This document shows, piece after piece, positions 4,222 to 22,935 of a stretch of DNA of 32,000 bases (positions are counted from its first letter, which is position 1; each line of letters starts with the position of its first letter). The notes under the pieces were generated by a model. That model saw only the letters and a program-made list of their open reading frames with translations, did no database searches and was not told where the DNA came from. The position numbers were made by a program, and so were the translations under genes. The DNA is from Prochlorococcus sp. MIT 0801 (GTDB lineage Bacteria; Cyanobacteriota; Cyanobacteriia; PCC-6307; Cyanobiaceae): assembly GCF_000757865.1 (NCBI RefSeq), contig NZ_CP007754.1, forward strand, positions 1,350,001-1,382,000, given 5' to 3'.

Positions 4222-5587
4222 TAGTTTACTCAACGCTCCTAATCAAAGTCTTGAAGAGACTGGTTACGCCTGGTATGTAGGAAATGCAAGGCTAATCAAT
4301 CTTTCAGGAAGACTTTTAGGCGCTCACATTGCTCACGCAGGACTAATTGTGTTCTGGGCAGGCGCGATGATGCTTTTCGAAGTAAGTCACTTCACCATGG
4401 ATAAACCCATGTGGGAACAAGGCTTAATTTGTATGCCTCACGTAGCCATGTTTGGATACGGCATTGGTCCAGGTGGAGAAGTCACAGATGTATGGCCTTT
4501 CTTCATTGCTGGTGTTATTCACCTAGTTGCATCTGGAATCCTTGGCTTTGGTGGTGTTTTTCACTCCCTCGCAGGTCCAGAGAAACTTGAAGAAGATTTC
4601 CCATTCTTCTCAACTGACTGGAGAGATAAAAACCAAATGACCAACATTCTTGGTTTTCATTTGGTTGTTCTAGGCGTTGGTGCTCTTCTATGGTCCATTA
4701 ACTGGATGTACATAGGTGGTGCATACGACACTTGGGCTCCTGGTGGAGGAGAAGTTAGGTTGATCAACCCAACACTCGATCCAAGAATTATTTTTGGATA
4801 TTTACTATCAACCCCTTGGGGTGGTGGTGGTTGGATGGTTGGTGTTAACTCAATGGAAGATATTGTCGGAGGACATGTTTACCTGGGAGTGATTGAAATA
4901 ATTGGTGGTCTTTTCCATATCTTCACTCAGCCTTATGGATGGGCAAGGAGAGCCTTTATCTGGAACGGTGAAGGACTTCTAAGTTATGCGTTAGGTGGAA
5001 TCTGTGTCGCAAGTTTTGTTGCCTCATGTTTCATCTGGTTTAACAACACTGCCTATCCATCTGAGTTCTACGGTCCAACAAACGCTGAAGCTTCTCAGGC
5101 CCAAAGTTTTACATTCCTAGTTCGCGACCAACGAATTGGAGCAAATGTAGGTTCAACAATGGGTCCGACTGGTTTAGGTAAATACCTAATGCGTTCTCCT
5201 ACTGGTGAAATCATCTTTGGTGGAGAGACTATGCGTTTTTGGGATTTCCGAGGACCTTGGCTTGAGCCTCTTAGAGGACCAAATGGTCTCAGCCTTGAGA
5301 AGATTCAAAATGATATTCAGCCTTGGCAGGTTCGCCGTGCTGCTGAATACATGACACATGCTCCAAACGCTTCTATCAACTCAGTTGGTGGAATCATTAC
5401 TGAGCCTAATGCTGTTAACTTTGTTAACTTGCGTCAATGGCTAGCAGGTGCTCAATTCTTCCTTGGTTGGTTTACTTTTGTAGGTCATCTTTGGCATGCT
5501 GGTCGTGCTAGAGCCGCTGCAGCTGGATTTGAAAAAGGTATCAGTCGTTCACAAGAGCCTGCTCTTTCAATGCCTGATCTAGATTAG
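4205..5587 (+). CDS. psbC: photosystem II CP43 chlorophyll apoprotein
   Basis: CP43 sequence (ETPFNS...[40 protein letters not shown]). I place the start at GTG 4205, which lies 9 nt downstream of GAGGAGG (4189-4195) inside psbD. The ORF track's TTG at 4178 is the alternative. The CDS overlaps psbD by 17 nt. Confidence 0.93.
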
Positions 5588-8719: not shown

Positions 8720-10576
8720 TCAAGACAGTAACTCTTTTAATTTCTGTTCTAATTCTTTAGTATATAATTTAGAATTAAAAAGATTTGATGATTCTCTTTG
8801 ATTCCTTAGTTTATCTTTTAAAAGTTTAATTTTATCTGGATTCATTGCAAGATTTAGCGCTAATTGTTCATATTCATCTTCACTATGAGTAATAAGTTCT
8901 GGTAAGCCAATAGATGTAAGCAAGCTAGCAGATACTCTTGCAGCAAAGCTCTCGCCAATTTTAGTTAAGACTGGCAGCCCTGACCAAAGGGCATCGGATG
9001 TTGTTGTGTGTCCGTTATAGTTAAATGTATCTAAGCCAATATCTCCAAGTGAATGCCTGGCAAGATGCTTTTCTAAAGGCAACCTATCAGCGAATACTAA
9101 ACTTTGAGGATCTACATTCCTTTTTTTTGCCTCTAAATATAAATTTTCAACAGACCATTTATTAGATTTGTAGAGCCAAAGAACACTTCCCTTTACTTTT
9201 TTAAGAAGCCTCATCCAAATATCGAATTCTTTGAATGTAATTTTTTTTGTTGCATTAAAACAAGTAAATACTATTCCTTTTTCAGGAAGTTGAAAATCTG
9301 TACGTTTAAATTTATCTTTAGAAATTACTTTCTTATTATCATTGCATTGGTAACAATGTGGCATTCTTATTATCTTTTCTGAATAGAATTTTTCATATTT
9401 TTTGGGAATTATAATATTGTCAGCTATAATATAGTCAATAGAACTTGATCCTAGTGTACCTGGATAACCAAGATAATTAATTTGAATAGGAGCAATACGA
9501 TAAGAAAAAATAGACATCCTATTATTATTTGTATATCCCATGAGATCTACAGCTATATCAATTTGATCATCTCGAACTAATTTAACTACATCTAAATCAC
9601 TTATCCCATATAAATATTTTAATGAAAATACAAATTTTTTTAAACTTTTTGTGAATTTATTTTCTTCAGCATTAAATGAATATATATATATATCGAAACT
9701 AGAATTATCATGTAATTCAAAAATCCTATATATCAAATGCATCACAGGATGATCTTTAAAGTCTGCAGAAAAATAACCGATACGAATTTTTTTATGTTTT
9801 TTATTTTTAATAAGTTTTTCTTGTCGAGCAAATCTTTTTTTATAAAGATTTTGGGATCTTTGTAATTGCTTAGAAGCGTTATCTTCAGCATACATTGTAC
9901 TCATCGGTTCAATTGAACCACCCTTTATACCTAAATCTTTTAGCCAATAATTCTGATTATTTAAATCACTCCAATCACATATTTGTGCTTTACATTCAAT
10001 TAACACGGACTTTGCCTTTGCAAAATCAGGATTTAATTCTAAAGCTTTTTTATAATTGAATATTGCCTCAGGGTAATCACCTGAAGCCCTTAAAGTATTT
10101 GCCAAATTAAAGTATGCATCTGTAAAAAAAGGATCTAATTCAATAGCTTTTTTTAATACACTTTCAGATTCTTTTAATTTGCCAAGATCTTTATAAATCG
10201 TTCCTATATGAGAATATGCATGAGGGCTTTGGGGATATAAGTTAATTGATTTTAGATAGAGCTCGATTGCCTTATTTAATTGACCAGACGTCTGAAAAAT
10301 AATTCCATAATTTGCGAAAACACTAGGATCGGAATAACCTTGATCTAAAAATAATTGATAATATTTAGAAGCTTCTAAGTAATTTCCTTTTATCATTGAG
10401 CTATTTGCCTGCGTTATGATTTCTTCTTTATTAAATTTAATAGAACTATTTGTATAAAAAACAGAATTTTCAGCTATTTTATCAAGAGAAAAAGGGACAA
10501 AAAATAAATCCTTACAACTAAGATTCGCTTTTAATATGATTTTTTTGTTTCGTTGTACCAATCTCGATACTTGCAA
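8720..10576 (-). CDS. TPR-repeat protein fused to a GT41 (SPINDLY / O-GlcNAc transferase-like) glycosyltransferase domain
   Basis: 618 aa. N-terminal TPRs (YYQLFLDQGYSDP, AIELYLKSINLYPQSPHAY, ALELNPDFAKA) are followed by a C-terminal GT41-like region (IRIGYFSADF, NYLGYPGTLG, FTCFNATKKIT, GHTTTSDALWSGLPVLT). No ATG precedes the first TPR. The ORF track starts at TTG 10576, so the 5' end is uncertain. Confidence 0.8.
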   Translation of the reverse strand: MQVSRLVQRNKKIILKANLSCKDLFFVPFSLDKIAENSVFYTNSSIKFNKEEIITQANSSMIKGNYLEASKYYQLFLDQGYSDPSVFANYGIIFQTSGQLNKAIELYLKSINLYPQSPHAYSHIGTIYKDLGKLKESESVLKKAIELDPFFTDAYFNLANTLRASGDYPEAIFNYKKALELNPDFAKAKSVLIECKAQICDWSDLNNQNYWLKDLGIKGGSIEPMSTMYAEDNASKQLQRSQNLYKKRFARQEKLIKNKKHKKIRIGYFSADFKDHPVMHLIYRIFELHDNSSFDIYIYSFNAEENKFTKSLKKFVFSLKYLYGISDLDVVKLVRDDQIDIAVDLMGYTNNNRMSIFSYRIAPIQINYLGYPGTLGSSSIDYIIADNIIIPKKYEKFYSEKIIRMPHCYQCNDNKKVISKDKFKRTDFQLPEKGIVFTCFNATKKITFKEFDIWMRLLKKVKGSVLWLYKSNKWSVENLYLEAKKRNVDPQSLVFADRLPLEKHLARHSLGDIGLDTFNYNGHTTTSDALWSGLPVLTKIGESFAARVSASLLTSIGLPELITHSEDEYEQLALNLAMNPDKIKLLKDKLRNQRESSNLFNSKLYTKELEQKLKELLS

Positions 10577-10696
10577 TAGCTTGATATTCTAAATATAGAC
10601 CAATAGAAGTCTTCAAAAGTTTAAATCTCTAAAATCATCATATAAATAAAATAATAAACGCAAAGCTAAGAACATATTACTACATAAAATAAAAAT

Positions 10697-11638
10697 TTAA
10701 TTGAGAATTTCGTTAAAATAATCTCTTGTAATTTCTAATCCTTTTTTAAAAGGGATTTTTGGTTCCCAATTCAACTCAGTCTTAGCAAGGTCTATTAAAG
10801 GTTTTCTTCTTTTTGGATCATCTTCCAGTTGATCTAAAAACTTTAACCTAATATTTTTTTTCGATTTGTCTTTAATCATTTTTGCTATTTCAATAATAGA
10901 TAATTCTTCAGGATTACCTAAGTTCAAAGGTCCAGAATTGGATGAGTTCATAAATAGAATCAAAGCCTCTATCAAATCATCAACAAAGCAAAAACTTCTG
11001 GTTTGTGTTCCATCTCCATATATTGTTAAGTCCTCTCCAAGAATTGATTGAACAAGAAAATTACTAATTAATCTACCATCATCTAATAACATTCTTGGTC
11101 CATAAGTATTAAATATTCTAGCTATTCTTATCTCTGTATTATTCATTCTCATGTAGTCATAGCATAATGATTCAGCTAAACGTTTTCCTTCATCATAACA
11201 ACTACGAATCCCTATGGGGTTAACATTACCTCTATAGTATTCCGGTTGAGGATGTATATCAGGATCTCCATAAACTTCACTAGTACTTGCAAGCAATATT
11301 TTCGCCCCTACTCTTCTTGCTAATCCAAGCATGTTATAAGTTCCAAGAAAACAAGTTTTAGATGTTTTAACAGGGTTAAATTGATAATGAATCGGCGATG
11401 CAGGGCAGGCTAAGTGCCATATCTTATCAACCTCAAGCATTATTGGCTCAGTAACATCATGACGAATCAATTCAAAGGAGTGATGACCAATCCAATGAGC
11501 AATATTTGTTCTTCTACCAGTAAAAAAATTATCCAAGCATATAACTTCCTCTCCTGATTTCATTAAACGATCAACCAAATGAGATCCTAAGAAACCTGCT
11601 CCTCCAGTTACTAAATTTCGGCAAGGAGAAGATCGCAT
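10697..11638 (-). CDS. UDP-glucuronate decarboxylase-like NAD-dependent sugar-nucleotide epimerase/dehydratase (SDR family)
   Basis: 313 aa with the Rossmann motif VTGGAGFLGSHL and the catalytic YDEGKR (YxxxK) motif. Overall it resembles UXS/dTDP-glucose 4,6-dehydratase enzymes. Confidence 0.85.
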   Translation of the reverse strand: MRSSPCRNLVTGGAGFLGSHLVDRLMKSGEEVICLDNFFTGRRTNIAHWIGHHSFELIRHDVTEPIMLEVDKIWHLACPASPIHYQFNPVKTSKTCFLGTYNMLGLARRVGAKILLASTSEVYGDPDIHPQPEYYRGNVNPIGIRSCYDEGKRLAESLCYDYMRMNNTEIRIARIFNTYGPRMLLDDGRLISNFLVQSILGEDLTIYGDGTQTRSFCFVDDLIEALILFMNSSNSGPLNLGNPEELSIIEIAKMIKDKSKKNIRLKFLDQLEDDPKRRKPLIDLAKTELNWEPKIPFKKGLEITRDYFNEILN

Positions 11639-11697
11639 ATGATTTAAAGCTTAAAAAGATTGTCTTATACTATGAGAGATGATTATATCTTTATGAA

Positions 11698-11751
11698 TTA
11701 AAAATAGTTGAATCTTTATAATTTTTATTATAAAGATTCAACTATTTTTAA
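11698..11751. repeat. perfect 25-bp inverted repeat with a 4-nt loop
   Basis: Every position from 11698-11722 pairs with 11751-11727 (ttaaaaatagttgaatctttataat / attataaagattcaactatttttaa) around a TTTT loop. An A-run lies on one side and a T-run on the other. Confidence 0.9.
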
Positions 11752-11977
11752 AAAATCATTTTTTTTTATTGATTTAATTTATTCGCTATAAAGAATTTCT
11801 ATATTATCTTGGGATTAAATTTACCGCTCATCAATCTATTAATTGCTTACATAAACTACTAGATAAATGTTCAGAATTCAAAATGAAGATGTATCTAATA
11901 AAATAGATATTATCACTCTTATTTTTCTCTATAAGATTTGAGTTGCAATAAAATAAAAGAGTGAATCATTCAGACAA

Positions 11978-12200
11978 ACAAAAAAGAATTGAATGTTGAT
12001 TTTTTAGTGATCCTTATTGGTAAAAAAAATAAATCCAACTTTTTGATAATCAATAATATTTCTCTGCTCTTCTAATAGCTTTAATAGAACCTTTATAATC
12101 TCCTATTTTATACTTTGACTCGCTAATAAGCTCTAATTTTTCTATCACCTCCTCTTTTCTTTTCTGACTAATTACTTTTTTATAATCTGATATTAAATCA
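11978..12200. repeat. right copy of the approximately 225-bp direct repeat (a roughly 45-bp remnant of the ferredoxin 3' end plus the intact 3' end of CDS 12050..12691)
   Basis: See 8451-8675. It contains ...gaatgttgatttttagtgatccttattggtaa, a copy of the last codons (NVEFFSDPYW*) of the ferredoxin-like gene carrying a small indel. Confidence 0.85.
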
Positions 12201-12691
12201 TATTTACTTTTTCGTATATCTGAACCTTTAATCAGAGCATTATATTTAGGTTCTAGATCCGTTTTTTTAAATGTACCTAACAAAATATTTTTATAATCTA
12301 TTTTAGTGTTACCTAATTCATTGGATTTATCAATTTCCAATAATCTAATTTTTTTAGCTTTTCTTTTATCATCTATTGCTCCTTGATAATCTCCAGTTTT
12401 ATATCTAGAGTTACTTCTACCACTAAATGAAATATCTTTAGACCTTTCTTTAATAATATCTATTTTAGATTCAAAAAAAATTGACTTTGAGAAGTCATCA
12501 ATAGCAGATACATTTTCTCCTAACTTATCATTCAAGAAACCACAATTTAAATATGCTAAAGCAATATCATCTGGATTTTCAAGACTATCAATATTCTTTT
12601 TTATAGAGTTAATAGCCCCATCATAATCATCTAAATCAATCAAATTAATTGCTTCATAATAAAAAGATGAAGGCTCTTGTAATTTTTTCAA
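12050..12691 (-). CDS. hypothetical protein with degenerate TPR-like internal repeats
   Basis: 213 aa. An internal motif recurs three times (DLDDYDGAINSIKKN / YKTGDYQGAIDDKRKAKK / YKIGDYKGSIKAIRRAEK). ATG start. Confidence 0.6.
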   Translation of the reverse strand: MKKLQEPSSFYYEAINLIDLDDYDGAINSIKKNIDSLENPDDIALAYLNCGFLNDKLGENVSAIDDFSKSIFFESKIDIIKERSKDISFSGRSNSRYKTGDYQGAIDDKRKAKKIRLLEIDKSNELGNTKIDYKNILLGTFKKTDLEPKYNALIKGSDIRKSKYDLISDYKKVISQKRKEEVIEKLELISESKYKIGDYKGSIKAIRRAEKYY

Positions 12692-12787: not shown

Positions 12788-12874
12788 CGGAGAGGGTGGG
12801 ATTCGAACCCACGGATAGTTTTAGCTATCAAACGATTTCGAGTCGTTCGCTTTCGACCACTCAGCCACCTCTCC
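12788..12874 (-). tRNA. tRNA-Ser (anticodon CGA), class II with a long variable arm; CCA is not encoded
   Basis: The reverse complement folds by hand into a cloverleaf. Acceptor stem GGAGAGG/CCTCTCC plus discriminator G. Anticodon stem AACGA/TCGTT with loop CTCGAAA. Variable arm GATAG..CTATC. T-arm GTGGG-TTCGAAT-CCCAC. Confidence 0.93.
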
Positions 12875-17795: not shown

Positions 17796-19184
17796 TCAAA
17801 GAAAACCTTGATTATTTCCACAGTCATTAGGAAAATTAATTTCTCCTGGTTTATCTACATCTAACTCATTGAGAATATCGACAATAGAAACTGCAAAGTT
17901 TAAGTTCTGAGCATTTCCACCTCCAGGAATATTAAAGGTATTCACTCCAATTACTTCACCTTTTAAATTCACAAGTGGACCTCCACTATTTCCTGGACTG
18001 ATGGAAGCATCAGTTTGGATTAGGGTCACATAATTAGGAGCGATGTCTTCAAGCAACTCTCCGCTTGGATAACGAATTGCACTCACTATCCCTCTTGTAA
18101 CTGTTCCAGCAAGACCTAGAGGTGAACCTAGTGCAACAACACTCTGACCATGGTTTGGATATTTGGCATAACAAATTGGTAGAGGTTTTGTATTACTTGA
18201 ATTTTGAGTTTTGACTAATGCAAAATCTAATTTCTTATCTACATATACGACTTTTCCTTGTACCTTTGTACCATCATTAGCAATCACCTGAAACTGTTTA
18301 TCGCCGCTAGAGACCACATGTCTATTCGTCAGAATAAGTCCTTGGTTATCAATAAAGAAACCACTTCCAGAGCCCTCATCACTTCTAAGTTTAACAACAG
18401 AAGGTAAAGTATTTTTAGCTATTATTTCGACATCTAAATTAACTTTAGATACTAATTGAGGATTTATATTTATATTTATATTTAATTTATCCCAAGTCTG
18501 TATAACTTTTCCGAATAGGCTTTTCAAAGATTGTAGTGTCTCTTCGCCAATAGGAACAGTTTCATAGCCAGCATTAGTTTTCATTCTTAGACTTAAAGTA
18601 GTTGAATCTCCTGCATTTTTAACCTTATTAATAAATCCCTGAGGTAAAACAAATTCTCCATTATTACCATAAATTCTATAACTCTTTGACCCTAAATATA
18701 GCTCTATAAAGTTTGGGAAGTCATAAACACTTAAGGGCTCATATGAACATACCCAAAACCCACAACCACCTGAAGTATAGAAATAACCTTTAAGGTAATC
18801 TGTAGTCCATTTAGTAAAAAAAGCTTTGGTATATCCTGTACTGAAATCTGATTTCTTATCTCTATCATATATTGCATATTCATAAGAGCCATCAAGCTGA
18901 GAAATATTCTTAACTATCCTAGACCAAGGAAGTTTAACTTTCTTGGCCTTCCAATCGATATCTTTCTCTAATTCAATTACTTTTAAGCCTGTTTTTTCAT
19001 CTATTTTTTCTCTACTTTTATATTCATTTTCGCCTTTACAATATTCTTTATCTCTATGGACTATAGAGGAACAATTAACTTTAAATTTCTTTGTTTCTTC
19101 AGACTTAATTTCTTGAAAATTAAATAATGAAAACAAAGATAAAAGTATTATTTGTAAAATTATTCTTACTTTAAAGCTTCCCAT
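17796..19184 (-). CDS. secreted trypsin-like (S1C/DegP-type) serine protease with a large uncharacterised N-terminal domain
   Basis: The C-terminal roughly 190 aa carry the catalytic His (LTNRHVV), Asp (DFALVK) and Ser (GNSGGPLVN). The N-terminal roughly 250 aa match no family I recognise. Start is ATG 19184 (MGSFKVRIIL..., a signal peptide) or the upstream ATG at 19205 (MLISLQIMGSF...). Confidence 0.8.
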   Translation of the reverse strand: MGSFKVRIILQIILLSLFSLFNFQEIKSEETKKFKVNCSSIVHRDKEYCKGENEYKSREKIDEKTGLKVIELEKDIDWKAKKVKLPWSRIVKNISQLDGSYEYAIYDRDKKSDFSTGYTKAFFTKWTTDYLKGYFYTSGGCGFWVCSYEPLSVYDFPNFIELYLGSKSYRIYGNNGEFVLPQGFINKVKNAGDSTTLSLRMKTNAGYETVPIGEETLQSLKSLFGKVIQTWDKLNINININPQLVSKVNLDVEIIAKNTLPSVVKLRSDEGSGSGFFIDNQGLILTNRHVVSSGDKQFQVIANDGTKVQGKVVYVDKKLDFALVKTQNSSNTKPLPICYAKYPNHGQSVVALGSPLGLAGTVTRGIVSAIRYPSGELLEDIAPNYVTLIQTDASISPGNSGGPLVNLKGEVIGVNTFNIPGGGNAQNLNFAVSIVDILNELDVDKPGEINFPNDCGNNQGFL

Positions 19185-19339
19185 GATTTGCAAAGAAATC
19201 AACATACTAGAGGGTAACTAGCTAAAATATAAAATCTAGAAAATGAAACAAATACTCCTTAATAAAATTAATTCCATTGGCCAGAAGATACATAAATGAA
19301 CATCGAGAAACTTTGTTTTTCAACAGAGTTCTTCTATCA

Positions 19340-19630: not shown

Positions 19631-19998
19631 AACCCAAAAAAAATAAGTATATACACTCATTAGGCAAGGAAAGGAAAAATACACTTACTAAACTAGAGAC
19701 ACAGAAGAAGGAGCAATTAGAGTATTTATCGAAATTATGATTAAAACAATAGATAATATTTGAAGTATTAATATATATTAAGGGGGTAGACCATGATAAC
19801 TATTAGTTGAGAGACATAAAACCCTATTTTCTACAAAAAAATATTTTTATACCTTGCGTTCGCTATAATTTATACTAAGTCAAACGCCTTCGAGCATAAC
19901 AAGACATTATAGAGTCAAGAGCGAAAAAGATAGTACACCAGTATCCATTGTTCCGATTCGTCACAAGACGTATATTAAATCCGTATTTAGCTAAACCT

Positions 19999-20619
19999 AT
20001 GGAACTATCGCCTACGGAGGTGGTTGACTTAGCAAATATTCCGCTCAACAGCGAAGTCACAAAGGGACTTGTACCTGCACAGGTGGAGTACGTCAAAGAA
20101 TCTGTCGTCGAAATCAACGAAGAGCTGAGCTGCGTTGGGCAATCGCTAAGAGCCGTGGCGGCCAACCTCTCCGACATAAAGAGCAACATCAAGCCTGGCA
20201 ATTGGAGAGCCTTCTTGAAATCCGGAGCGATTAACTGCTCAGAAAGGTTTGCAATTGACCTTGTAAGTGCATACACGAACTGGCTAGGTGGTTCCGATAT
20301 AGACGACAACATGCTTGCATCGCTAACACCTAGATCGCTAGCGTTAATGGGAAGCAAAGGAGTGACCGATAAGGAGCGACAAAAGGTATTCGAAGCCGTA
20401 GGGAACGGCGAAAGAATGACAGAAGCGGCCGTAAGAAGCTTAGTAAAAGGAAGCAAGAAAAAAGCTAGTAAATCATCCCAGAAAAGTGAAAGCGAAAAGA
20501 TCAAATCACTAAAAGAAAAGATCGAGACTTACAAAAAAGTCATCAACAACCTTCAAGATGAAAACAAGAAATTAAGTAAATTACTATCAAATAGAGAGAA
20601 AATTGAGTCACTTGTCTAG
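19999..20619 (+). CDS. KfrA-/DUF3102-like protein: a GC-rich N-terminal globular (putative DNA-binding) domain plus an AT-rich C-terminal Lys/Glu coiled coil
   Basis: The segment GNWRAFLKSGAINCSERFAIDLVSAY resembles the conserved core of DUF3102 as I remember it (G.W..WL.....S.RTA.R.M..A). The C-terminus KSLKEKIETYKKVINNLQDENKKLSKLL is coiled-coil-like. I place the start at ATG 19999; the ORF track's in-frame TTG is at 19948. Confidence 0.6.
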   Translation: MELSPTEVVDLANIPLNSEVTKGLVPAQVEYVKESVVEINEELSCVGQSLRAVAANLSDIKSNIKPGNWRAFLKSGAINCSERFAIDLVSAYTNWLGGSDIDDNMLASLTPRSLALMGSKGVTDKERQKVFEAVGNGERMTEAAVRSLVKGSKKKASKSSQKSESEKIKSLKEKIETYKKVINNLQDENKKLSKLLSNREKIESLV

Positions 20620-20659
20620 TGATTGCCACCAAAAGCATTTCCTACTACTATTATTAAAA

Positions 20660-20833
20660 ATGAAAAGCATCAAATTCAGTACTAGAATCTATAAACAAAT
20701 AAAATCAAAAAATCAAGAAATCAACAACTTAGAGGAAGGAATAACGAAGGTACTTCAAGAAAAATACAAGCCTAAAGTTCTTTGCAACATAGAGACTTTG
20801 AGCGAAAAGAAAGTTCAAAGGGGGGTAGCTTAA
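20660..20833 (+). CDS. hypothetical small basic protein (57 aa)
   Basis: Internal ATG of ORF 20603..20833, lying 40 nt after the previous stop. Part of a tightly spaced same-strand gene string. Confidence 0.4.
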   Translation: MKSIKFSTRIYKQIKSKNQEINNLEEGITKVLQEKYKPKVLCNIETLSEKKVQRGVA

Positions 20834-20837
20834 GATT

Positions 20838-20999
20838 ATGAATAAGAATTTAAAATCAAGAAATGGATTCATCCATTTATACAACCCCCATGAAGAAGGA
20901 TTAGGATCTTACGATGTACACTATATAAACGCCTATAAAAAAAATGAAAGTTTAAAAAATAATCTAAACAAAAGAAATAAGGAGAGGTATGCAGCATGA
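20838..20999 (+). CDS. hypothetical small protein (53 aa), below the ORF-track length cut-off
   Basis: Hand translation gives MNKNLKSRNGFIHLYNPHEEGLGSYDVHYINAYKKNESLKNNLNKRNKERYAA. It starts 4 nt after the previous stop, and its TGA overlaps the next ATG as ATGA (20996-20999). Confidence 0.4.
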   Translation: MNKNLKSRNGFIHLYNPHEEGLGSYDVHYINAYKKNESLKNNLNKRNKERYAA

Positions 21000-21316
21000 T
21001 TCCATTTATCAGAAGCCTTTCGGAGCTAATGGCGATTACAGAGTCAAGAGACAGCCAAAAGCATCTCTCTCAATACGATGAAAGCTATACATCTACAATA
21101 GATAGTGGACAAAGAAAAAGATATATAAAGTCACTAAGCAAGCAAGAAGTCAGCCTGCCTGATTTACCTAAAACAATAAGGCATAAATGGATGCAAAATA
21201 AAGCATCTATATCAAGATTCATTGATGATTTAGATTACAACAATCAAATACAATCTTCCTTTGATCTGACCTTAATAGAAAGACAAAACAAGAGAACTCA
21301 ACAGGATGTCGCCTAA
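20996..21316 (+). CDS. hypothetical protein (106 aa)
   Basis: ATG preceded by GGAGAGG (20981-20987). ATGA overlap with the upstream sORF. No recognisable domain. Confidence 0.5.
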   Translation: MIPFIRSLSELMAITESRDSQKHLSQYDESYTSTIDSGQRKRYIKSLSKQEVSLPDLPKTIRHKWMQNKASISRFIDDLDYNNQIQSSFDLTLIERQNKRTQQDVA

Positions 21317-21318
21317 TT

Positions 21319-21660
21319 ATGAAAAAAACTAAAATAAATCAGGTGCTAGAGTATTTATCTCCGACATTGATTCTCTCATATTTTTTTGTACATAAAATTT
21401 TTCTAGTTCTAATTAGCATTACATTGTCAATATATTTAATAAATATTACTATGATTAATAATCTCAAAAGATCTCTAACTAAAAATTTGGATACAATAAA
21501 AGAACCTAAGGAGTTAAATAAAAGCGATAAGGAAATAAATTCCAATATTGTTAGTATCAAATCAAGTAAAGATGATACCAAACTTACATTAGTTGAAGAA
21601 ATAGAAGAATTCGGATTTATACCATCAATAGATAAGGAAAATAATACTAATGCAGCATAA
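21319..21660 (+). CDS. hypothetical membrane-anchored protein (113 aa)
   Basis: Starts 2 nt after the previous stop. The N-terminal hydrophobic stretch LILSYFFVHKIFLVLISITLSIYLI is followed by a polar, acidic tail. Confidence 0.5.
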   Translation: MKKTKINQVLEYLSPTLILSYFFVHKIFLVLISITLSIYLINITMINNLKRSLTKNLDTIKEPKELNKSDKEINSNIVSIKSSKDDTKLTLVEEIEEFGFIPSIDKENNTNAA

Positions 21661-21766
21661 TATATTTTTAATATATAAATATCTATACTAAATAATTGAT
21701 TGCAAACCCTTTTTCTATTTACAAACAAATTTGTTAAAGGTAAGCTGGGATACATGCAAAAAGTAA

Positions 21767-21961
21767 ATGCAAGAAGATCCAAATAGCATAGAAGATTTAT
21801 TAGTTAAAGGTTTATCTCATATTTTAAAAAGAACAGTAGAGGTAAGCCCAAGGGATCAATTAGCAATTGCCCAAGAGTATAAAGAATGGATAAATTGCAT
21901 ATCTGCTAGTGATTTCTCAAAGCAAGAGATTCTAGTAATAGATAAGTTTACATTTAGCTAG
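21767..21961 (+). CDS. hypothetical small protein (64 aa), paralogue of 25039..25239
   Basis: Shares PNSIEDL...L.R..E....D......QEYKEWI......SKQEIL with the 66-aa ORF at 25039. Conservation between the two copies supports coding. Confidence 0.55.
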   Translation: MQEDPNSIEDLLVKGLSHILKRTVEVSPRDQLAIAQEYKEWINCISASDFSKQEILVIDKFTFS

Positions 21962-22213
21962 AAATTTTAGTTTAGCTAAAAAATCTATAAAGAAATATAT
22001 TTTTGATTAATAAATCAAGTATAATAGATTAAAACTTAAAATATCTAAGAATTTAAAAAAAGTTTTCTCTATATTTATAAATTTAGCTGAAAAAATAGTA
22101 AAAATTTATATTTATTATTTATTTTTTGTTACTATTTTTTAAAGTTAAAATAATCTTTTTTTTATAATTGAATCAAATAGCCAAGTTCACATTAAGCAAT
22201 AAAGGAAAGAAAA

Positions 22214-22241
22214 TTGACATTATTCAGTACTAATGTACTAT
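22214..22241 (+). promoter_or_regulatory. sigma70-type promoter (-35 TTGACA, 16-nt spacer, -10 TACTAT) overlapped by a LexA/SOS box
   Basis: TTGACA at 22214-22219 and TACTAT at 22236-22241. AGTACTAATGTACT (22226-22239) is a perfect palindrome AGTAC-N4-GTACT and fits the cyanobacterial LexA consensus RGTACNNNDGTWCB at every position. Confidence 0.6.
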
Positions 22242-22318
22242 AAAGAAACGTTCCTATCGTATCGAAGAATCTCGATTTTCTTTCAGCCACTCTTACAAAA
22301 TCATTTAATTTACTAAGC

Positions 22319-22504
22319 ATGAGTAATGAAACAGCTAACAGAGGTAGGGAAATCTTCGCGTATTTAATCAACCAATCAACTGGAGTATCTAATGGAATCT
22401 TCAAGCACTTCAAGCTGGGTATCGACAAAGAGCCTAAAGCTTTCAAGCGGACTAGAAATTGGAAGAGAAGCGCTCATAACAAGCTCCACAAGAGAGTTAG
22501 TTGA
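22319..22504 (+). CDS. small basic protein (61 aa) downstream of the LexA-box promoter; may be the 5' part of a frameshifted longer gene extending to 22586
   Basis: The ATG lies about 75 nt downstream of the putative -10. A second frame (22392..22586) overlaps it and stays open to 22586. GC is moderately elevated. No family recognised. Confidence 0.4.
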   Translation: MSNETANRGREIFAYLINQSTGVSNGIFKHFKLGIDKEPKAFKRTRNWKRSAHNKLHKRVS

Positions 22505-22675
22505 ATTTTACTGGACAAATCGAAAGCGATTTTCTGGAGGTTACTTAGGCTTCCCTTCAAAAATAAATAGAGACCAGGAGAAATAAAAACTGAACTTAAA
22601 ATTTCCTTTTTTTGATCTAAGTAAATAATTTATTATTAAGGCTATTACAAAAAACAAATTAATAAATAACGATTG

Positions 22676-22891
22676 TCATTTATCATTATTTACTTGATAC
22701 GAATTCGGAGCAAGGATTAAAAATACTATCCACCAAACAAGAATAAAAAAACCTAAAACAGAAGTGATTATAATGTTATTTAAAAGTTTAAAACTGAAAA
22801 TTAGAACTAAAACTCCAAAGCTAATAATTGACCAAGGTTGACACCAATAAGGCTTTGAATCCCAAAAACTTTTTTTTGCATTTGTATCCAT
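22676..22891 (-). CDS. small conserved-looking membrane protein (71 aa, two TM helices)
   Basis: SKPYWCQPWSIISFGVLVL... followed by a second hydrophobic helix. Same strand as the repeat-protein gene and immediately downstream of it. Confidence 0.55.
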   Translation of the reverse strand: MDTNAKKSFWDSKPYWCQPWSIISFGVLVLIFSFKLLNNIIITSVLGFFILVWWIVFLILAPNSYQVNNDK

Positions 22892-22935
22892 TAAAGAAAT
22901 ATGAGAAATGATTAAAGCTATCCAATACTAACGGC

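Follow-up and report, generated by a model that had tools for sequence, protein, structure and literature searches.

In the 32,000-nucleotide stretch of Prochlorococcus sp. MIT 0801 DNA analyzed here (contig NZ_CP007754.1, positions 1,350,001 to 1,382,000; referred to as the window), positions 22214-22241 read as a strong sigma-70-type promoter with a LexA-type dimer operator in its spacer, overlapping the -10 element. The best-supported product of this promoter is most likely a 64-amino acid (aa) protein, encoded by an open reading frame (ORF) that we call ORF2. We consider it probable that LexA occludes the promoter, that de-repression follows RecA-stimulated cleavage of LexA and that the outcome is a small effector restricted to Prochlorococcus. 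The promoter has the following elements.

22214-22219, plus strand: -35 hexamer TTGACA, read from the sequence; its TTGAC is kept in 54 distinct homologous promoters.
22226-22239, no strand assigned: LexA-type operator AGTACTAATGTACT, with inverted-repeat arms AGTAC and GTACT; an exact match to RGTACNNNDGTWCB.
22236-22241, plus strand: -10 hexamer TACTAT, sharing its first four bases with the operator's right arm; little or no variation among the homologues.

The region reads TTGACA-ttattc-AGTACTAATGTACT-AT, with a 16-bp spacer between the two hexamers, which together are the top sigma-70-like match within 21900-22900 (10 of 12 positions). A previous reading of the window from its letters only (the sequence-only reading) had placed the two hexamers and the box at these same positions and had described AGTACTAATGTACT as fitting the cyanobacterial LexA consensus RGTACNNNDGTWCB at every position, and both statements are correct. 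The box is the sole exact match to this consensus in the window, where it matches on both strands, and it also fits at all positions the consensus AGTACWNWTGTACT that Li et al. 2010 (PMC3091678) derived for the LexA box. It is not the perfect palindrome that had been claimed: its reverse complement is AGTACATTAGTACT, and only the 5-bp arms pair, the central TAAT not being self-complementary. The box lies between the -35 and -10 elements and shares four bases with the latter, which is the placement expected of a site that blocks RNA polymerase. If transcription starts near 22248, as we predict, the operator would be located at about -22 to -9.

Taken alone, the strict-consensus site is only marginally significant against chance. 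The expected number is 0.20 per window, and the observed count of two (one site read on both strands) was reached by 6 of 100 shuffled sequences. The relaxed pattern RRTACNNNNGTAYY occurs at exactly two distinct sites in the window (19932 and 22226) versus 0.15 expected, and only one of 100 shuffles gave two. What makes the single site convincing, and what we regard as the decisive evidence, is the conservation of the operator. Homologous loci were collected by a protein search (L002-L006), an exact 25-mer scan of species-representative genomes (L007-L016) and a degenerate-peptide scan of metagenomes (L017-L061), and all of the related DNA retrieved came from Prochlorococcus single-cell genomes, Prochlorococcus isolates (MIT 1012; CP114777.1) or marine metagenomes. 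The first ~70 nt of one contig (L004, ERZ2438567) are sequencing adapter, and the protein called on it (P0001) starts with MCIRDS; the promoter comparison therefore leaves out its upstream sequence.

Wherever the upstream sequence is long enough, the best hit of a position weight matrix (PWM) is, in essentially all loci, found 261-267 nt upstream of the codons for ELVEFYW, between TTGAC(A/T) and TACTAT. In box numbering, the 54 distinct promoters keep the TTGAC of the -35 element, vary in the following five to six bases (positions -6 to -1), have T at position 0 in 47 of 54 cases, a purine at positions 1 and 2 and T-A-C at positions 3-5 (51-54 of 54), vary again at positions 6-8 and are near-invariant from T(9) through T(16), including the GTAC at 10-13. 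The pattern conserved in these ~54 loci is thus T-R-R-T-A-C-N3-T-G-T-A-C-T-A-T. Promoter function alone does not explain the conservation of the left half-site and of T(0), because both are outside the -10 element; conservation there that is mirrored on the right arm is what one would expect of a dimeric operator. The sequence-only reading had proposed a repressor-occlusion geometry and had asked whether homologous loci keep the box. They do, and the proposed geometry is strengthened by the presence of both half-sites at a fixed position in ~54 promoters in which the adjacent spacer varies.

Variants among the boxes also match published LexA boxes of Prochlorococcus. Li et al. 2010 (PMC3091678) list AGTACAGATGTACT, AGTACACATGTACT and AGTACGCATGTACT as recA boxes of high-light Prochlorococcus and GGTACAAATGTATT as the lexA box of strain MED4. 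Kolowrat et al. 2010 (PMC2921402) give TAGTACA-N2-TGTACTA as the consensus for several Prochlorococcus genomes, including MED4, the LexA protein of which retains the cleavage motifs. In marine Synechococcus, recA, lexA and umuC are induced by mitomycin C. A supplement to bioRxiv 10.64898/2026.04.15.718746 reports that a LexA motif gives FIMO hits ahead of members of a MED4 'LexA' expression module; these include recA, lexA and umuDC, as well as the small hypothetical genes PMM0030, PMM0334 (DUF3104), PMM0684, PMM0819 (DUF1651), PMM1813, PMM1966 and PMM1427; the boxes of PMM0030, PMM1813 and PMM0684 are AATACATATGTACT, AATACATCTGTACT and AGTACACCTGTATT, respectively. The window box is of the same 14-bp motif class as the recA, lexA and umuDC boxes of Prochlorococcus and marine Synechococcus (PMC3091678; PMC2921402), whether written as AGTACWNWTGTACT or as TAGTACA-N2-TGTACTA, and the variants at the homologous loci are one base away from recA-type boxes or of the same form. 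Variants of the AATAC type equal the MED4 boxes of PMM0030 and PMM1813, those of the GTATT type equal the box of lexA itself and the divergent homologues (48-68% protein identity) have boxes that are nearer still to the recA type (GGTACGCATGTACT, AGTACATATGTACT and AGTACGTATGTACT). The family differs from the recA, lexA and umuDC boxes in that position 6 is usually T rather than A/G, in that position 2 is often A and in that the window box precedes an unannotated 64-aa gene instead of a repair gene. The window 14-mer, the two common variants of the homologous loci and the reverse complements of all three are absent from the supplementary site lists of Li et al.

The sequence downstream of the promoter contains the following features.

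22248-22391, plus strand: predicted 5' leader of ~144 nt, beginning at the predicted transcription start; it holds a conserved block (22287-22313) and the start of ORF1.
22319-22504, plus strand: ORF1, the 61-aa ATG-initiated ORF of the sequence-only reading; five homologues have been called, and it is at least 55 aa long in 27 of 49 loci.
22382-22385, plus strand: Shine-Dalgarno-like GGAG, 6 nt ahead of the ORF2 ATG; CTGGAGTATCTAATGG is kept in most homologues.
22392-22586, plus strand: ORF2, 64 aa (MESSSTSSW...RELVEFYWTNRKRFSGGYLGFPSK), in the overlapping +1 frame, with the signal of purifying selection; the best-supported product of the promoter.

The sequence-only reading took ORF1 to be the gene served by the promoter and called its product an ORFan. 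An ATG-initiated ORF of 61 codons is indeed there; the conserved coding signal is in the +1 frame, in ORF2, which has 203 database homologues compared to five for ORF1 and is no ORFan. The ratio of nonsynonymous to synonymous polymorphism (pN/pS, by the Nei-Gojobori method) in the segment covered by ORF2 only (22505-22583) is 0.26 in the ORF2 frame, 1.43 in the ORF1 frame and 1.52 in the third frame; the corresponding values in the overlap (22394-22501) are 0.40, 0.80 and 0.88. Strong alignment conservation continues for ~80 nt past the ORF1 stop codon, and the substitutions in this stretch are synonymous in the +1 frame only (TAC/TAT, CGA/CGG/AGG and TCT/TCA). Column entropy across 57 sequences has a periodicity in which codon position 3 of ORF2 is the most variable phase over 22383-22577. 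The ORF1 frame has a weak signal of this kind at 22323-22367 only, and in the first 45 nt of ORF1, which ORF2 does not cover (22322-22366), pN/pS is 0.50 in the ORF1 frame, 1.24 in the ORF2 frame and 0.96 in the third.

The same picture emerges from the intactness of the two frames. Of 49 distinct complete loci, 46 have an intact ORF2, and ORF1 is lost or truncated in 22; indels in L008 and in MIT 1012 (L009) disrupt ORF1 and spare ORF2. The ORF2 ATG is invariant among the homologues, and the gene called on a contig identical to the window here (L001) is ORF2. Some homologues lengthen the ORF2 frame to 86 aa or fuse both frames (L008 and the 88-aa protein P0028), and these extensions and fusions show that no single frame is maintained ahead of the ORF2 ATG. 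The 86-aa versions start, in the ORF2 frame, at an ATG 7 nt downstream of that of ORF1; in the window, this frame contains a TAA at 22365-22367. A conserved motif, ATGATTAATGAA, contains two ATGs in different frames, and indels have scrambled the sequence 5' of ORF2 in the homologues. ORF1 is probably an upstream or alternate-frame ORF and not the main product; at most it would be an upstream ORF, the first third of which may be translated. Gene callers disagree at the ORF2 locus; most annotations consequently lack the gene, as do the regulon predictions based on such annotations, and it is unannotated in the strains for which UV or microarray data have been published. Exact look-ups of the 61-aa protein and of a 149-aa protein of the window returned no record.

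The distance between the box and the ORF2 ATG is 162-168 nt in most loci, which gives a leader of ~144 nt. RNAalifold found no consensus structure over 53 leaders, and Rfam 15 had no match to 22100-22750 at E values up to 10, apart from sub-threshold noise from eukaryotic snoRNA and miRNA families. A scan for intrinsic terminators gave none, and 22560-22640 folds no better than shuffled sequences. Two details of the leader are recorded here. A possible 5' hairpin at 22261-22276, ATCGAAGAATCTCGAT (ATCGA...TCGAT), is partly kept, with variants that look compensatory (ATTGA...TCAAT), and is unsupported by RNAalifold; beside it is the conserved leader block CCACTCTTACAAAATCATTTAATTTAC at 22287-22313.

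We picture the system as follows. As long as the cell is undamaged, LexA would sit at about -22 to -9 and keep RNA polymerase off the -10 element. After DNA damage, self-cleavage of LexA, stimulated by RecA, would release the promoter, and a transcript of ~340-370 nt would be made, the ~144-nt leader of which carries the 61-aa frame as an upstream ORF that overlaps the main gene. The main product would be the 64-aa hydrophilic, basic protein, translated from its own GGAG-N6-ATG start, and this protein would most plausibly bind a partner as a small damage-response effector. In this picture, the sequence anatomy, the conservation of promoter and operator and the coding frame are observed, whereas LexA as the binding protein, the transcription start, the induction by damage and the role of the protein are inferred.

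Several observations count against this interpretation. As to the protein, an AlphaFold2 model of ORF2 (98-sequence alignment) is of low confidence (predicted local distance difference test (pLDDT) 59), with a single helix over RELVEFYWTNRKRF, and is too poor for a fold search. As to the operator, the boxes were located by pattern or by PWM, so that their conservation is partly a matter of ascertainment and the apparent invariance is inflated; in addition, the right half of the operator also serves as the -10 element. The sequence-only reading had suggested scoring the site with a PWM built from the genome's own lexA, recA and umuCD boxes. Our PWM was trained on 16 recA/lexA boxes of published picocyanobacterial genomes, taken from Li et al. 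2010, and the result is mixed. With 15.8 bits, AGTACTAATGTACT is the best 14-mer in the window, 5.6 bits above the next (10.2), and the variants at homologous loci match published boxes, which tells against the refuting condition of the sequence-only reading that the genome's own boxes differ; however, AGTACTAATGTACT scores below all 16 training boxes (17.3-21.9), mainly because of the T at position 6, where the training boxes carry A/G. Furthermore, position 2, a G in the consensus, is A in about half of the homologues; AATAC boxes do, however, also occur in the MED4 LexA module. Finally, predicted LexA-box genes often fail to respond to mitomycin C in marine Synechococcus, the responding fraction being 15 of 27 in one strain and 10 of 46 in another.

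The atypical bases at positions 2 and 6 and the many unresponsive Synechococcus boxes would also suit a gene outside of the SOS response, in which the motif is the conserved operator of another dimeric regulator or an element intrinsic to the promoter, such as the discriminator or spacer of a particular sigma factor. We think this unlikely, since the motif is an exact match to the cyanobacterial LexA consensus and boxes identical to its variants stand upstream of genes in the MED4 LexA module, lexA, recA and umuDC among them. NtcA in particular does not fit: it needs GTA-N8-TAC, centred near -41.5 in an NtcA-activated promoter, and here the spacing of GTA and TAC is N6 and the site overlaps the -10 element, so this candidate was rejected. 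We know of no picocyanobacterial regulator other than LexA with a TAC-N4-GTA site. That AT-rich intergenic sequence merely happens to resemble a promoter and a LexA box, with no function attached, is scarcely credible. One strict site per 32 kb is marginally unexpected, as noted above, but position-for-position conservation in ~54 otherwise diverged promoters effectively refutes a chance match, and there is a second site 2.3 kb away in the same gene cluster, an arrangement of two relaxed sites that shuffling rarely reproduced.

Two further explanations concern the product. ORF1 could itself be functional and the +1 frame incidental: it has an ATG start, stays open in more than half of the loci, was called five times by the gene callers behind ENA records and, in its first 45 nt, has both the lowest pN/pS of the three frames and the weak third-position periodicity. 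This is improbable, as the ORF1 value in the overlap resembles that of a non-coding frame and is twice that of ORF2, the synonymous-type conservation past the ORF1 stop is in the +1 frame only and the indels in L008 and L009 destroy ORF1 alone. It is more doubtful still that a programmed +1 frameshift yields one protein with its N-terminus from the ORF1 frame and its C-terminus from the ORF2 frame. The coding signal does move from frame 0 (22322-22366) to frame +1 (from ~22383), and L008 and the 88-aa P0028 are natural frame-fused variants. However, ORF2 has its own invariant ATG with GGAG before it, no slippery site or shift site like that of release factor 2 (RF2) is evident, and the 86-, 88- and 64-aa versions reveal an upstream frame scrambled by indels in many homologues, which argues against a fixed shift site. 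Dual coding by the two frames was considered as well and judged unlikely.

The predicted protein has the following properties. ORF2 is hydrophilic and basic (pI 9.6, 28% Ser+Thr, grand average of hydropathy (GRAVY) -0.66), and a Kyte-Doolittle analysis detected no hydrophobic or transmembrane segment (maximum 19-residue mean 0.27); the GRAVY of ORF1 is -0.98. The protein looks largely disordered in the model, except for the one conserved helix RELVEFYWTNRKRF. Neither ORF1 nor ORF2 has a family match in Pfam, PHROGs or NCBIfam (E up to 1) or in PADLOC (E up to 0.1). A profile search of 1.8 billion representative proteins returned only 26 clusters; those with strong matches are, like ORF2 itself, short proteins. 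The ORF2 homologues are restricted to Prochlorococcus, none was found in the phage genomes or viral contigs searched and the sole RefSeq record found, WP_269625270.1, is labelled 'hypothetical protein'.

Small proteins and checkpoint effectors induced in the SOS response include DinI, SulA and TisB of E. coli, YneA of B. subtilis and SidA and DidA of Caulobacter. Their shared logic, in which a LexA operator overlaps the strong promoter of a small effector made only after DNA damage, would apply to ORF2 as well. However, ORF2 has no sequence or domain similarity to any of these proteins, and TisB, SidA, DidA and YneA have a transmembrane segment, which ORF2 lacks. The toxin suggested by the sequence-only reading is not borne out in the sense of a membrane toxin, and a type I toxin or membrane division inhibitor of the TisB/DinQ/SidA/YneA class was rejected on the same grounds, ORF2 being hydrophilic without a hydrophobic segment. 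The small genes of the MED4 LexA module are closer parallels: they too encode short Prochlorococcus-specific proteins with a LexA motif close upstream, and the boxes AATACATATGTACT and AATACATCTGTACT recur in front of ORF2 homologues. ORF2 belongs to none of their families (it matches neither DUF1651 nor DUF3104 nor any other Pfam entry), and the MED4 motifs are 13-23 nt from the annotated starts, compared to a leader of ~144 nt for ORF2.

The sequence-only reading had concluded that no other GTAC in the window fits the consensus. This is true for the strict form, but it misses a conserved box with one mismatch from RGTACNNNDGTWCB, 2.3 kb from the first site.

19932-19945, no strand assigned: second LexA-like box, which reads AGTACACCAGTATC (GATACTGGTGTACT on the minus strand) and is located between glyQ/protease and orf206; kept in 11 loci.
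19999-21961, plus strand: cluster orf206-orf53-orf106-orf113-orf64, with synteny in all loci; possibly another unit controlled by an operator of this type.

The second box is followed by an invariant 31-nt block, CATTGTTCCGATTCGTCACAAGRCGTATATT (to 19976), and then by the orf206 ATG at 19999. On the plus strand, it adjoins a conserved TTGTTC-N17-TATATT, with TATATT at 19971-19976; the TACTAT that it overlaps on the minus strand reads TACTAA in two of the 11 loci. It may control the orf206 operon (plus strand), a minus-strand transcript or both; through it, the same repressor probably also governs the adjacent orf206 operon. A comparable arrangement is the SOS box shared by the divergent promoters of E. 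coli uvrA and ssb: the second box is likewise in a divergent intergenic region and has candidate promoter elements on both strands, with the difference that the minus-strand -10 element is TACTAA in the two loci just mentioned. The orf206 protein has ~600 homologues (88-96% identity), all labelled hypothetical. Its model is all-alpha with a pLDDT of 67, and neither Foldseek against PDB nor a profile search against PDB sequences gave a meaningful match.

One may go further and speculate that the two operators mark a so far unrecognized, Prochlorococcus-specific DNA-damage module, made up of the orf206-orf64 operon and the ORF2 cassette, in which ORF2 is the damage-induced effector and its translation is tuned by the overlapping upstream ORF. 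We regard this fuller scheme as tentative and, taken as a whole, rather unlikely. If it were true, ORF2 could be the missing link between ultraviolet (UV) exposure and delayed chromosome replication in Prochlorococcus; a UV-induced replication delay has been described by Kolowrat et al. (PMC2921402). Whether and how Prochlorococcus uses an SOS response was still described as open by Osburne et al. 2010. The Prochlorococcus LexA regulon, as predicted, consists mostly of repair genes together with a few unexplained small proteins. The locus would bring to this predicted regulon a 64-aa gene, unannotated and lineage-restricted, and possibly the neighbouring five-gene operon, with a highly canonical design of promoter plus operator that is kept across high-light and other clades. 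The 64-aa gene is a probable member, new to it, of the known cyanobacterial SOS regulon. The operator type is already known, as are small LexA-regulon members of unknown function in Prochlorococcus; the ORF2 family, its promoter and the paired operator at the neighbouring operon appear to be unreported, judging from the site lists of Li et al. and from the lack of family names in the databases.

The window has a G+C content of ~31% and includes psbD/psbC, cobQ, a tRNA-Ser gene, a solute-binding protein gene, glyQ and an AhpC-type gene, and the order of these genes is similar to that of MED4 PMM1153-PMM1165; no SOS genes were found in it. By tblastn with the neighbouring proteins, the gene order is orf206, orf106, orf113, orf64, ORF2, DUF6737 (minus strand), a repeat protein (minus strand), a SnoaL-like gene and DUF7222, and it is the same in all loci that are long enough, including two complete genomes (MIT 1012, NZ_CP138919.1, and CP114777.1). 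The sequence-only reading had placed the gene in an islet of accessory DNA, and this does not stand, the portion from orf206 to SnoaL being syntenic in all retrieved loci. A strain-specific islet or mobile element was rejected on account of this synteny in all retrieved relatives and the lack of phage or viral homologues. The orf206-ORF2 block is widespread and not universal: as far as the available part of the MED4 source goes, that strain has different genes after glyQ. No MED4 homologue of ORF2 was seen, nor were DUF6737 and DUF7222 found, in the available portions of the supplements to bioRxiv 10.64898/2026.04.15.718746.

A true presence/absence polymorphism does occur nearby, in the form of a trypsin-like serine protease gene (469 aa, 17796-19205, minus strand) located between glyQ and orf206. 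The protease is missing from this position in L007, L009, L014, L015 and L016; in L012, there is a gap of 3 kb at this place.

Some other features of the window are worth recording. Within the minus-strand 168-aa ORF, the segment 22942-23205 consists of a tandem repeat of 18 bp (14.8 copies, 96% matches). The repeat encodes (P[VI]EEDK)n and, in another frame, also yields a spurious overlapping 122-aa ORF, (RKISLL)n. Rfam reports a match to IsrR (151 bits) at 4619-4802 on the minus strand, antisense to a gene that is psbC (CP43) by its position and length. IsrR is defined as an antisense RNA to isiA, a CP43 homologue, and the match may reflect mere sequence similarity of isiA and psbC or else an antisense RNA to psbC. 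The stretch at 8720-12691 is low in G+C (27-30%), lies beside the tRNA-Ser gene (12788-12874, minus strand) and carries genes for a TPR/GT41 glycosyltransferase, an epimerase/dehydratase and a TPR protein. In MED4, the corresponding place is taken by PMM1162 and several tiny hypothetical genes. The 8720-12691 stretch looks more like a tRNA-flanked variable region than the neighbourhood of ORF2 does.

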